Below are positions 3,181-30,339 of a DNA stretch of 64,000 nt, piece by piece. Under the pieces are notes generated by a model. The model was not told the origin of the DNA, did not search any database, and saw only the letters and a list, made by a program, of their open reading frames with translations. The stretch lies in contig OZ024741.1 of the NCBI GenBank assembly GCA_964016885.1, positions 37,448,001-37,512,000 of the forward strand, given 5' to 3'. A program made the translations under genes and the position numbers. Each line of letters starts with the position of its first letter. The stretch's first letter is position 1. This stretch comes from Eledone cirrhosa (lineage: Eukaryota).

Positions 3181-3897
3181 TTGGGTATATATTTAAAAAG
3201 TAATTTGTGTTATCCTGGAGTGTCTGTTTAAATATTTAAAGTCTATAGCTGTAGGTAGTGTCCATAATTGCTCTAATAACTGTTCTCAAAGTAAATTGGT
3301 GTCTACGAGTAAATAGTTAATGGTTACGGAATAATATCTAAGGAAAGACTTAAGTCACGTTAAAGCCATCTGACTGAAGGCATAGATTTGCTAGCCTTGG
3401 ATTTAAAATTGTTGCTGTGGGAAGTCATGTATTTAAAACCCTCTTGATATCAAACCACTTGAAACCATCCTTAGTTCTATGATACATAGCTATTTGTTTT
3501 AAATTGTTTATATTTATCTAAAAACTCTCCATTATAATTCTATGTAAAAACCTTTGATATGTTCCAAACACGAACTTAATAACGAGAATGTTAGTTATAT
3601 TAGTAAATATTTTACTGCATACATACATACATATTCATGTATACATCGTTATTTCAGAGCACCAATCCTAATATCTAATTTTTGCTGGACTGGCAATCGC
3701 CTTCTATAATCAGCTCCTGATTATTACTGGAAATCTATAGGAATCCAGCTTCTATAATTTTCGGCGGAAGCAGGGAGTGTGTGGCTCTGATGAACGCCAA
3801 CCAGTGTGAAAAAGAATCCAGCTTCTACTTTAAAACTGATAACGCATGGTCTTCTAAATGTTTTTAATTAAACACACAGCATATTGCCAAATATACT

Positions 3898-26594: not shown

Positions 26595-27719
26595 TATATA
26601 TATATTCATTTATTATAGCTAAGTAGTGAGCCTTGTTACTCTGGAGTTACATCTGCACACTCACAGGATCATCAGACAAGACTAAAGTTTCAAAAACAGA
26701 AACATTATAATTAGAAGAAGGGGATGGTAGGTGTTTTTGAATGGGTGTGTAGGGAGCGAAAGAAAGAAGTAATGAAAAGAGGAAGGTGAAGAAGAAGGAA
26801 GTATAGAAAGAACTAAGAGAAATAAGGGAGATATGGACATGGCATGATTGTTGATGATGATGATTAAGTTGATAATAGGAATTTGGAAGATTAGCAAAAG
26901 TGGAGAAGTTTCGGGATGAATAAGGTAAATGAGATTAATAGAAGATAGGTGGTAAGGTGGGTATATATCTATTGGTAGGGGTGAATAAAATAATTTACTG
27001 AAAAATAGAATTACTTGAGAAAACAGCGGGTGTGGTATACATGATCCATTATGTTATCACTTTAATTTCATTAATTTCAACCTTATCATCACCATCATCA
27101 CATATACTGTACCCCTTGTCTTTTCAATTACATTTTCCCCTAAATATTTTATGTATCTCCACCAATTGACTCACACTCACCTATGTTATTTTCTATTCGT
27201 CATAACCTCAGACTTCCACTTTATCTCGATCACACCTTTATATGTCTACATATTAAAATGTGTATATTTATATTCACATGGGCACAGTCTCTGTTACCCT
27301 CTCTGTACATATACAGATATAACTTTATTGTACTCTTCAGCTGCTAGCACAGTTTTTAATATATATATCTTAATTAACTACTGACATGAACACTATATGC
27401 AAATTAATACGTCGATTTCAGAATATCACAAAGACCCAATGGGTATATAAGCTCATCAAATATGTGTTTTCTTATGGTTGTTTAAATGATATATACACGA
27501 GGATCCAACTAGGTCCAAAATTTGATTAAAGGTATTTATCATTTTTTCAATTTACAGGGAAATTCATCCTTTTTGGAATGTTTACATGTCTACATATTAA
27601 TAATGTGTATATTTATATACACATTGGCGCTGTCTCAGTTACCCACTTTGTATGTATACAGATATAACTATATTATACATTTCAGCTGTTTAGCAAACTT
27701 CTTAATATATAGCTAATCT

Positions 27720-28950
27720 CTCATAGGCTGAGGTCATAAGAGCAATTTAAAGTGTTCAAACGTGGCAAGGCCACTGGGGTGGAAGAAATTCGGCCCAAGA
27801 TGTTAAAAGTCTTAAATAGAGATTCTCTGACTGACTTGTGTGTCCTGGGTAGCCTGGATCTCTGGAAAGACACCTAAACAATGGTAATCAGGAGTGATAA
27901 CCCTAATTTTCAAAAAGGGAGACAAAAGAGATTGCTCCAATTATAGATGGATCTTGTTAAGTTTCCCTGGTAAAGGTTATGGTAAGTGTCTGGAAAAAAG
28001 ATGGAGATTGTGAAGTCTAAGCTAGCTGATGCTCAGTGTGGTTTTCACCCCAGACGCAGCACAGCCAATCAAACACTGCTGCAGGTCTTTCAGAAATTAT
28101 GGAAGTACTGCCAAGAGGTATATTCTTGCTTTGTAGACACAACTGTGTTCCACAAGATCTGCTGGGGAAGGTTCTGCAAGAGTATGGGAGTGATAGTTAG
28201 CTTGTTGCCCTGATGTCTCAATGTGAATGCCCGAGAATTTGTGAATGGATAAATGGTGTCTAAGACCGTCGTGAGACAGGTTAGTTTTATAGTACTGATG
28301 TACTGCATGTAGGCGGCGGCTGCAGCTTTTTGAGGTTGCGGTTGCCAGCAACATCAACTTGGCTATGGCTATCCTGGCCAGTATGAGAGGAACCGCAGGA
28401 TCAGAGCAATGGTTTGCGCACTCGCTCGATAGAGCGATGGTGCCAGGCTGCCTCTGAGCGGTAACGGCTGAACACCTCTAAGCCGGAACTGTAGTCGGAC
28501 CCGAGTTGTTTTTCGAAAACGTCTCAATCTTCTTAAGGCACATGCCTTAGTTTGTCAATTGCCGTCCATTCGGCGTGCGCGTCGGCAGTGCCAGCGGAAT
28601 TGTCATTCTGGGACGGCGACTTAGTCGTCGTCATCCATTTGATTTGTCAAAAAGGATCGCTTGTATACGACTCGACTTGCCGTTCGGAGTGATGTGCTTA
28701 GTAGAGCAGCTACCACACTGCGATCTATTGTGTCGCTTCTCACGAATGAAAAGACACTTTATCTTTTGCGAGTGTAAACTCGGCCGAAGAAGAAGATAAA
28801 TGGTGCTAAATCAAAACCATTTAATGCGGGAGTCGGACTGTGTCAAGAGTGTGTACTGTCACCTCTACTGTTCATTATTTTCATGAACAGGATTGACATG
28901 TGCAGCCAGGTTGGAAGTGGTATCACGACTGGCAAGTGCAGAATCACCTG
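27720..28950 (+). mobile_element. old degenerate RTE (Rex3/Expander-like) RT fragment, interrupted at 28259-28794
   Basis: GKATGVEEIRPKMLK, PNFQKGR..CSNYR, AQCGFHPRRSTANQ; after the insertion [30 protein letters not shown]. Confidence 0.8.
28259..28794 (+). pseudogene. retroposed 3' end of 28S (LSU) rRNA with TSD and (GAA)n tail
   Basis: AGACCGTCGTGAGACAGGTTAGTTTTA; sarcin-ricin loop AGTA(T)GAGAGGAACC at 28380; CTGAAC(A)CCTCTAAG; AGTAGAGCAGC..CTGCGATCTATTG; flanked by GATAAATGGTG direct repeats. Confidence 0.9.
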
Positions 28951-30339
28951 TTCTGGAATTTGCAATTGACAATGTGGGCTTTTCGTTTCATCTTTTCAAG
29001 GTTGATGAATAAACTATTAATCAAGTAATTGGGTTGATTCTTCTTTCTTGATTTTTTTTCTGTCTAGAAGTAATTGGTACTGTTCAGACCTGGAGAGGAT
29101 TAGGCTCTGCTAGGTCTGAAATGCTGAAGACATTATCATGATTCTACCCTTGTGACTTTATCAGGAGTTCTGGGCCTTATGGATATTTACATGTAACATT
29201 TACAGAGAGGATTCTTAAGTCATGTAAAGGACAAGACAATTTCTCTAGTACTGCTGTCATGATAAAAAAAAAGTACTGGTGCCACTCAGTACACTTAGTG
29301 AAGTGGTTGGCAATAGGAATGACATCCCGTCATAGAAACCATGCCAAAAAGGACTGTTTCTGGGTGAGATGTGGACTCCTGACTTATCTTGAAGCACAGT
29401 AGCTCCAATTAAGTTCTGGGTTGGTCTGTAACAACTTGTCCAACCCATTTCAGCTTGGAAAAATGAATGTAAAATGATGATGGATGACATTGTAACATAT
29501 ATTATGAATTGAGGTTCTGTTGGTCCAGTAGATAAGTGACATGCTAGGTTTTCATGTATTTTCATGAGAAAAACTGACTTACACACAAGTTTATATGCTT
29601 CATTTTATTACATTTCATTTTTTATTTTTATTTTCAATTGCCCAATCAAAGTTCAATAGATTATAGTTTGAATTAAAAAGTTTTAAAAAACATTTCTTAG
29701 AAAATAATTAGATATTTCATAACTAATTTGCCTGTTGAGTCTTGAATCTTGTAATAATAATGCTAAGTGGTTAAAGTGATTATCATCCTGTAGGTCATTT
29801 CAGTCTTTTTTTTTTTTCAATTATATTTTTTGCAGACCATCAGGAAATCTGATGACTATCCACATAAGGATTAAGTAGGCTTCAGTTGACTGAGGATCCA
29901 ACTTTTCTCACAGACAACAAGTAAGTTCATTTTATTATTAAGTTGGATTTTTATATAAGATCTCTTAGCATGTGAGAGCCATGAGTGTATTGTCAATAGT
30001 TGAAGTGTCCTTGTTATATAGAAAAGTTGATCCTTCTCAGCTATTGACAAACACATTGTTGCTGTAGGACAACTCTGGCAAAAGGCATTAGTAGTTGTTT
30101 TTTTTTTTAAGACATTTTTAAATATTTCTTTTTATTTTATAAAATTGTTTCTATTGCTTTATATATCTTAATTTTTATTAATTGATTTGTACTTTGTCGT
30201 GAAGAGCACTTATAATATTTCTTAGAATATATACAACTTTTTAATTTGTTACTTTTAAGTATTTTTTTGTTGTAAATATTCAAAATTTTTATCTTATTTA
30301 TGAAATTGGAAAATAAATCTGCTTTTGTTTATTATTGTT

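Follow-up and report, generated by a model that had tools for sequence, protein, structure and literature searches.

The window, which is the whole 64-kb stretch of Eledone cirrhosa DNA that was analysed and corresponds to G000:C2:37448001–37512000 in an assembly of 3.0 Gb, contains a 536-bp insert (28259–28794) that splits the old reading frame of a LINE reverse transcriptase (RT). The 5' part of the interrupted LINE is a decayed fragment at 27713–28247 (+) with 71–81% identity to other genomic copies, and its 3' continuation at 28806–28971 (+) is 86–89% identical to 11 other copies; RVT_1 matched this short piece only weakly, with an E-value of 0.099. The interrupted family has 3,409 candidates in the genome, and its other copies match an intact LINE ORF by tblastn. 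As described in the original prediction, the insert is GC-rich relative to its surroundings (50.4% versus approximately 42% in the flanking RT remnant) and ends in CCGAAGAAGAA, and the RT frame picks up again across an exact 11-bp repeat, GATAAATGGTG. The repeat is located at 28248–28258 and 28795–28805 (both +), with no third copy in the 64-kb window, and the chance of such a bracket is roughly estimated at 3e-5. Eleven other copies of the interrupted LINE were compared; nine have the 11-mer singly and join both flanks on it, with the left-flank alignment stopping and the right-flank alignment starting there, and the repeat is therefore a true target-site duplication (TSD). A short-read contig from run X2, which may derive from the very sample behind the assembly, spans 28109–28679 with no differences, and the left insert junction is therefore not an assembly artefact. 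On its left the interrupted LINE adjoins a 131-bp direct repeat of 85% identity (27578–27708 and 27234–27362), and no convincing host gene turned up when the window was crudely scanned for exons.

The larger part of the insert, 28259–28749 (+), is a 5'-truncated and decayed copy of the 3' end of the host 28S rRNA, which accounts for approximately 490–500 nt. The Rfam model LSU_rRNA_eukarya matches 28354–28756 with an E-value of 4.6e-29 and gives the sole Rfam match in the 64 kb; when the stretch was cut out, the match reached position 3401 of 3401 of the model at 28759. This covariance-model check confirmed the LSU rRNA origin, and the retroposed nature of the insert was likewise upheld. Compared with the host copy L002, the insert differs by substitution in 46 of 492 columns, lacks 79 nt in ten gaps, and has gained no insertion. 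The genome search gave 78% identity between host rDNA and insert positions 5–491 with gaps counted (40 of 149 candidates scored), a low value that is due mostly to the gaps. At non-CpG sites of the core, 250 of 262 positions (95.4%) agree with host rDNA, and the two share expansion sequence specific to the host. Full-length host 28S genes sit on chromosome-scale contigs; the whole-genome Rfam LSU search scored 4 of 22,526 candidates and is not a census. By these comparisons the donor is the host's own unusual 28S. The host 28S has a TATG/CGTC H88 break motif at L002:1322–1329, and this motif has been reported as specific to incirrate octopuses (PMC13321053); the host most likely belongs to that group. 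The idea that the insert is the natural 3' fragment below the H88 break was rejected, the motif (L002:1322) being approximately 175 nt upstream of the insert start. The host 28S at L002:1–680, directly upstream of the conserved TAGCCAAATGCC, is long, variable and partly AT-rich, and differs strongly among copies.

Relative to L002, 27 of 123 CpG sites are changed in the insert, 25 of them as C>T or G>A, and 19 of 369 other sites are changed. Substitutions altered 18 of 154 confidently predicted host base pairs. Both sides were changed with pairing retained in 2 (1.2 expected at random, P = 0.34) and with pairing broken in 1, and one side was changed with pairing kept in 7 (9.9 expected) and broken in 8 (8.5 expected). 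The Rfam model score is 197.3 bits for the host stretch and 145.8 bits for the insert. Thus, the compensatory change and intact core pairing of a functional or foreign rRNA gene were not found. The pairs CGGCT..AGCCG and CGCTC..GAGCG, which had been read as compensatory differences, are letter-for-letter host rDNA, and the insert's own changes fit random decay. Since CpG-type C>T and G>A changes dominate and compensatory pairs are not in excess, the 28S copy has decayed neutrally. The suggestion of a functional but divergent donor rRNA holds for function, and the divergence is that of the host's own 28S and not of a separate rRNA.

Plain neutral decay does not predict the distribution of the missing bases. 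All 79 nt are absent from expansion columns (79 of 232) and none from core columns (0 of 344), and the gaps are partly symmetric. The first hairpin, at 28306–28350 (+), is an expansion hairpin on the 5' side of the sarcin-ricin loop; it is shortened, with gaps of 9+4+4+9 relative to the host. Paired gaps of 9/9, 4/4, and 3/3 leave the hairpins intact, and the two expansion-like hairpins named in the original prediction both fold, with z-scores of −4.1 and −3.8. Against random gaps of equal size, the symmetric shortening gave nominal P values of 0.048, 0.042, 0.18, and 0.30 for four hairpins. If the donor was a genuine host rRNA whose expansion segments were shorter, either from an earlier stage or from an rDNA variant since lost, the insert would be its fossil. 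This would account for ten gaps without insertions, none in the core, and for the preserved hairpins, and segment lengths do vary among host copies and organisms. However, the short first hairpin, the 21-nt gap, and the 15-nt gap are shared by none of 27 other distinct rDNA-derived sequences, and rDNA copies of comparable divergence (L023, 5.3%; L128, 5.8%; insert, 4.6%) still have both the 15-nt segment and a long first hairpin. Loose ends from runs X4 and X6, which represent other organisms, also carry the 15-nt segment, and it is bounded by 5-nt direct repeats, as slippage would leave. Correction of quasi-palindromes in DNA can also yield symmetric gaps. We therefore regard the fossil as possible yet clearly the less favoured answer to this sub-question, and loss of the 79 nt from highly stable, GC-rich hairpins, during copying or later, as the probable one. 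The fuller version, in which a lost octopus 28S variant with short hairpins was placed in front of a minimal 34-nt RTE-like stem-loop as the founder of a SINE that never amplified, is rather unlikely; if it were true, the insert would be a dated fossil of the growth of octopus rRNA expansion segments.

The divergence of the insert from host rDNA is 5.1% at non-CpG sites, which corresponds to a Jukes–Cantor (JC) distance of 0.053 (0.10 over all sites). Copies of the LINE that donated the 3' tail (see below) differ by 6.7% from the majority of these copies, exact tails being over-represented in the sample, and the two ages agree roughly. With the Octopus vulgaris calibration of JC 0.065 to 18 My (PMC13282606), JC values of 0.053–0.10 would place the insertion roughly 15–28 My ago, or 15–30 My in round figures; both are rough dates. 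In run X5, which comes from another organism, the bins to which only the short-hairpin sequence can map have a depth of approximately 20, similar to the single-copy contigs of that run, and the X5 rDNA itself has the long hairpin arm. This depth pattern hints that the insertion may be shared with the other organism.

The last 34 nt of the insert, 28761–28794 (+), are the 3' end of an old RTE-like LINE and consist of a stem-loop followed by (GAA)3 (z = −2.8; 1 of 200 shuffles folded as well). The original prediction had suggested that the approximately 50 nt before the tail may be either the 3' ETS or a LINE recognition tail, and had proposed a search among LINE 3' ends. The ETS was rejected as the source because the host ETS does not match, and the LINE alternative was borne out. 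Specifically, the last 30 nt match 34 other genomic places, nearly all at 100%, and upstream of most of them lies the end of an RT-encoding LINE (RVT_1 E-value of 2.6e-8 in donor copies). A 20-mer of the tail has 70 exact matches and 170 matches at ≤1 mismatch genome-wide, with 0 control matches; the donor LINE thus has at least 170 ends in the genome. The interrupted LINE was also considered as tail donor and rejected, as its family differs from that of the donor and ends in a different sequence, the tail query having 0 matches in 11 copies; BLASTP of the donor piece against the short target piece gave no alignment.

Among the best-scoring copies of the donor family the frames are short or broken by stops, and no intact copy was found among 150 scored matches. 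A relative with 46% identity has a single ORF of 1056 amino acids with RVT_1 and an endonuclease domain just under the Pfam cut-off. Both the single ORF and the microsatellite end are as expected of the RTE group. Because the donor RT, the ORF of the relative, and the (GAA)n end together show these features, the tail donor likely belongs to this group, and the RTE-like enzyme postulated at the outset is supported by the RT frames upstream of matching tails and by the endonuclease-RT ORF of the relative. Comparison with the Atlas returned only generic endonuclease-RT clusters. Microsatellite ends are described for octopus RTEs in an earlier study (PMC9115989). An intact LINE ORF of 1056 amino acids with endonuclease and RT, ending in (TA)n, is located at L087:1019–4189; it has many genomic copies with equal open-frame length and probably represents a young family.

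The length of LINE sequence is <48 nt at 28 of 101 other tail sites, most of these being 25–37 nt, and at several short sites the end adjoins the 5' part of the element itself, in one orientation or the other. For these reasons, stopping or jumping approximately 30 nt into the RNA is a habit of the tail-donor LINE. Its TSD habit is weakly documented, a crude search having found candidate TSDs of 7–12 nt at 14 of 34 ordinary copies. Internally deleted or 5'-inverted copies of the donor LINE (L033, L034, L039, L043, L047, L051, L057, and L092) join the 5' part to the last 30–100 nt and resemble bipartite non-autonomous RTEs.

Between the two parts lies a junction zone at 28750–28760 (+), which comprises either mutated last bases of the mature 28S or extra bases. 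The Rfam model places the mature 28S end at L002:2076. Clear 28S homology of the insert stops at 28749, approximately 10 nt short of the modelled end, so that the 28S part ends 0–11 nt from it and includes no ETS. The rDNA variant L064 has GACACTTT in common with the insert at 28750–28760. Two dispersed 28S 3' pieces, at L121:2003–2081 (+, 79 nt) and in L124 (− strand, G000:C1597 near 6277, 63 nt), are 99–100% identical to the host and preceded by (TA)n; neither has a LINE tail, and no TSD was found at either. Because both end exactly at the modelled mature end (2076), they suggest that the mature 28S end does act as a template in the host genome. Most other dispersed 28S pieces examined run on into the ETS.

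The arrangement at the locus is that of an RNA/LINE chimeric retrocopy, with a cellular RNA directly 5' of a LINE 3' end, both parts in the sense orientation, and one TSD around both, opposite an intact empty site in the paralogues. The parts with their order and shared orientation, the TSD, the origin from the host, the neutral decay, and the presence of one copy have all been shown. The insert is a single decayed chimera of the host 28S 3' end and the last 34 nt of an RTE-like LINE, bracketed by one 11-bp TSD and most probably produced by template switching of a LINE enzyme. In the proposed course, a LINE endonuclease would have nicked the older LINE remnant, and reverse transcription would have started at the (GAA)n end of the LINE's own RNA and copied the terminal stem-loop. 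Approximately 34 nt in, the enzyme would have moved to the free 3' end of a mature 28S rRNA and copied approximately 570 nt of it before stopping, after which the site would have been sealed and the copy would have decayed with no further copying. One target-primed event with a jump is preferred because there is one TSD, the 28S is in the sense orientation and ends at the mature rRNA end, and the LINE length falls at the usual break-off point. Prior ligation of LINE RNA and 28S RNA would give an identical product, and an exact end-to-end jump is no more than a possibility, given the ambiguous origin of the junction bases 28750–28760. A two-step origin would involve insertion of a 34-nt solo LINE end and capture at the DNA level of 28S from rDNA or free cDNA, added at the 5' junction of that end either while the site was being repaired or afterwards. 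The ingredients are common, namely solo ends of 25–37 nt of the donor LINE (28 of 101 sites <48 nt) and dispersed rDNA pieces (33 non-array 28S-end sites). We consider this course improbable, as the 28S part by itself has no second TSD, and it is in the sense orientation and stops at the mature rRNA without ETS, which most other dispersed pieces enter.

The original prediction had proposed a 28S-derived SINE. In such a case the chimera would have been transcribed and recopied by the LINE via its intact recognition tail, and the 3' end shared with a partner LINE, together with the cellular RNA head, is indeed the architecture of RTE-dependent SINEs as given in two reports (PMC5786205, PMC5322556). 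Copies with the same 3' end and (GAA)n and with different TSDs were counted, and the junction was seen once. Specifically, a pattern over the 28S end and tail has 1 match genome-wide (exact matches only, by which old copies are often missed), and the short first hairpin was found in the genome search at the window locus alone. A 27-mer near the 28S end has 93 sites at ≤3 mismatches, of which 33 are dispersed or in the rDNA array and 60 are units of a separate tandem family. Among the 41 sites examined (all 33 and 8 of the 60 tandem units), the LINE tail is present only in the window and absent from the 40 others. Conversely, in comparison with 20 kb around a full 28S gene, no 28S was found within 700 nt upstream of 101 other tail sites (of at least 170), and the lone match to that 20 kb fell outside the 28S. 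The counts thus cover 101 of at least 170 tail sites and 8 of 60 tandem-type 28S-end sites, a scope that leaves the SINE some room. Compared with the consensus sequences, the insert has no B box even at two mismatches and one loose A-box match, and its 28S part has three internal runs of 4–5 T. Because the copy number is one and neither multiple copies with different TSDs nor an A- and B-box promoter was found, the SINE reading fails; the insert appears to be single-copy and not a SINE, and the proposed recopying is highly improbable. The result comes close to the one-off processed copy that had been set against the SINE, in that the insert is single and derived from host 28S, but it lacks the ETS and is a chimera with a LINE end.

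An Rfam search of 80 tail loci found no other structured RNA fused to the end of the tail-donor LINE. A full-length U6 (83.6 bits) at L097:1142–1249 was rejected as a chimera, being antisense and approximately 240 nt 3' of the LINE end. The separate tandem family has approximately 60 units, spaced by approximately 30–70 kb where tandem, at G000:C28:124.73–126.45 Mb and on contigs C178, C398, C760, C1185, C1204, and C1549 (L028–L030, L130–L134). In every unit, the 28S 3' piece is decayed and has lost 26 and 18 nt of the core next to short repeats, and the family is an amplified, rDNA-derived macrosatellite.

An rRNA from a parasite or another organism, as had been entertained, is barely conceivable, since the 78% BLAST identity that would favour it counts the gaps and is opposed by the core identity at non-CpG sites, the shared host-specific expansion sequence, and the full-length host 28S genes on chromosome-scale contigs.

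The insert can be compared with four known systems. Eighteen human 28S/L1 chimeras have been reported, for which template switching or RNA ligation was proposed (PMC13174262). As in the octopus, a 28S fragment lies 5' of a LINE 3' end in one insertion; 83% of the human fragments are sense and they are 50–482 nt long, and the octopus insert is sense and of similar size. In contrast to the human chimeras, the octopus LINE likely belongs to the RTE group with a (GAA)n end, the LINE part is 34 nt, and the host is a mollusc. Furthermore, the octopus fragment is the extreme 28S 3' end, whereas human fragments often begin near nt 3,636 of 5,035 (PMC13174262). Mammalian SINE28 elements likewise originate from the 28S 3' end, are 65–555 bp long with TSDs, often lie within another mobile element, and are frequently re-derived from rRNA (PMC4994717). 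Their tails are A-rich or simple, they number 27 loci in human, and transcription by Pol III has been reported for them (PMC4994717). The octopus insert differs in its LINE-specific tail, in being a single copy, and in that no B box was found. RTE-dependent SINEs and the platypus snoRNA-RTE element similarly combine a cellular RNA with an RTE 3' end, and a template-switch origin was proposed for them (PMC5786205, PMC5322556). The platypus element has approximately 40,000 copies (PMC5786205, PMC5322556), whereas the octopus insert is unamplified, and its head is a Pol I product in which no internal promoter was found. Tailless 28S retropseudogenes are also 5'-truncated 28S copies made by the LINE machinery (PMC5322556); unlike them the octopus insert has a LINE tail, and L121 and L124 resemble the tailless kind, with no TSD found. 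In the full-text literature, a scope that most subscription papers fall outside, we found no cephalopod for which a 28S/RTE chimera has been described.

The insert extends 28S/LINE chimeras, which have been published for mammalian L1, to a mollusc and to a LINE other than L1, and it indicates a preferred stopping or jumping point approximately 30 nt into the RNA of the tail-donor LINE. At a locus that went no further, it shows how the proposed route to RTE-dependent SINEs begins, with a cellular RNA gaining a LINE recognition tail. As a single dead copy the insert likely has no function; it would serve mainly as a phylogenetic marker, and it may also preserve a record of older rRNA hairpins.
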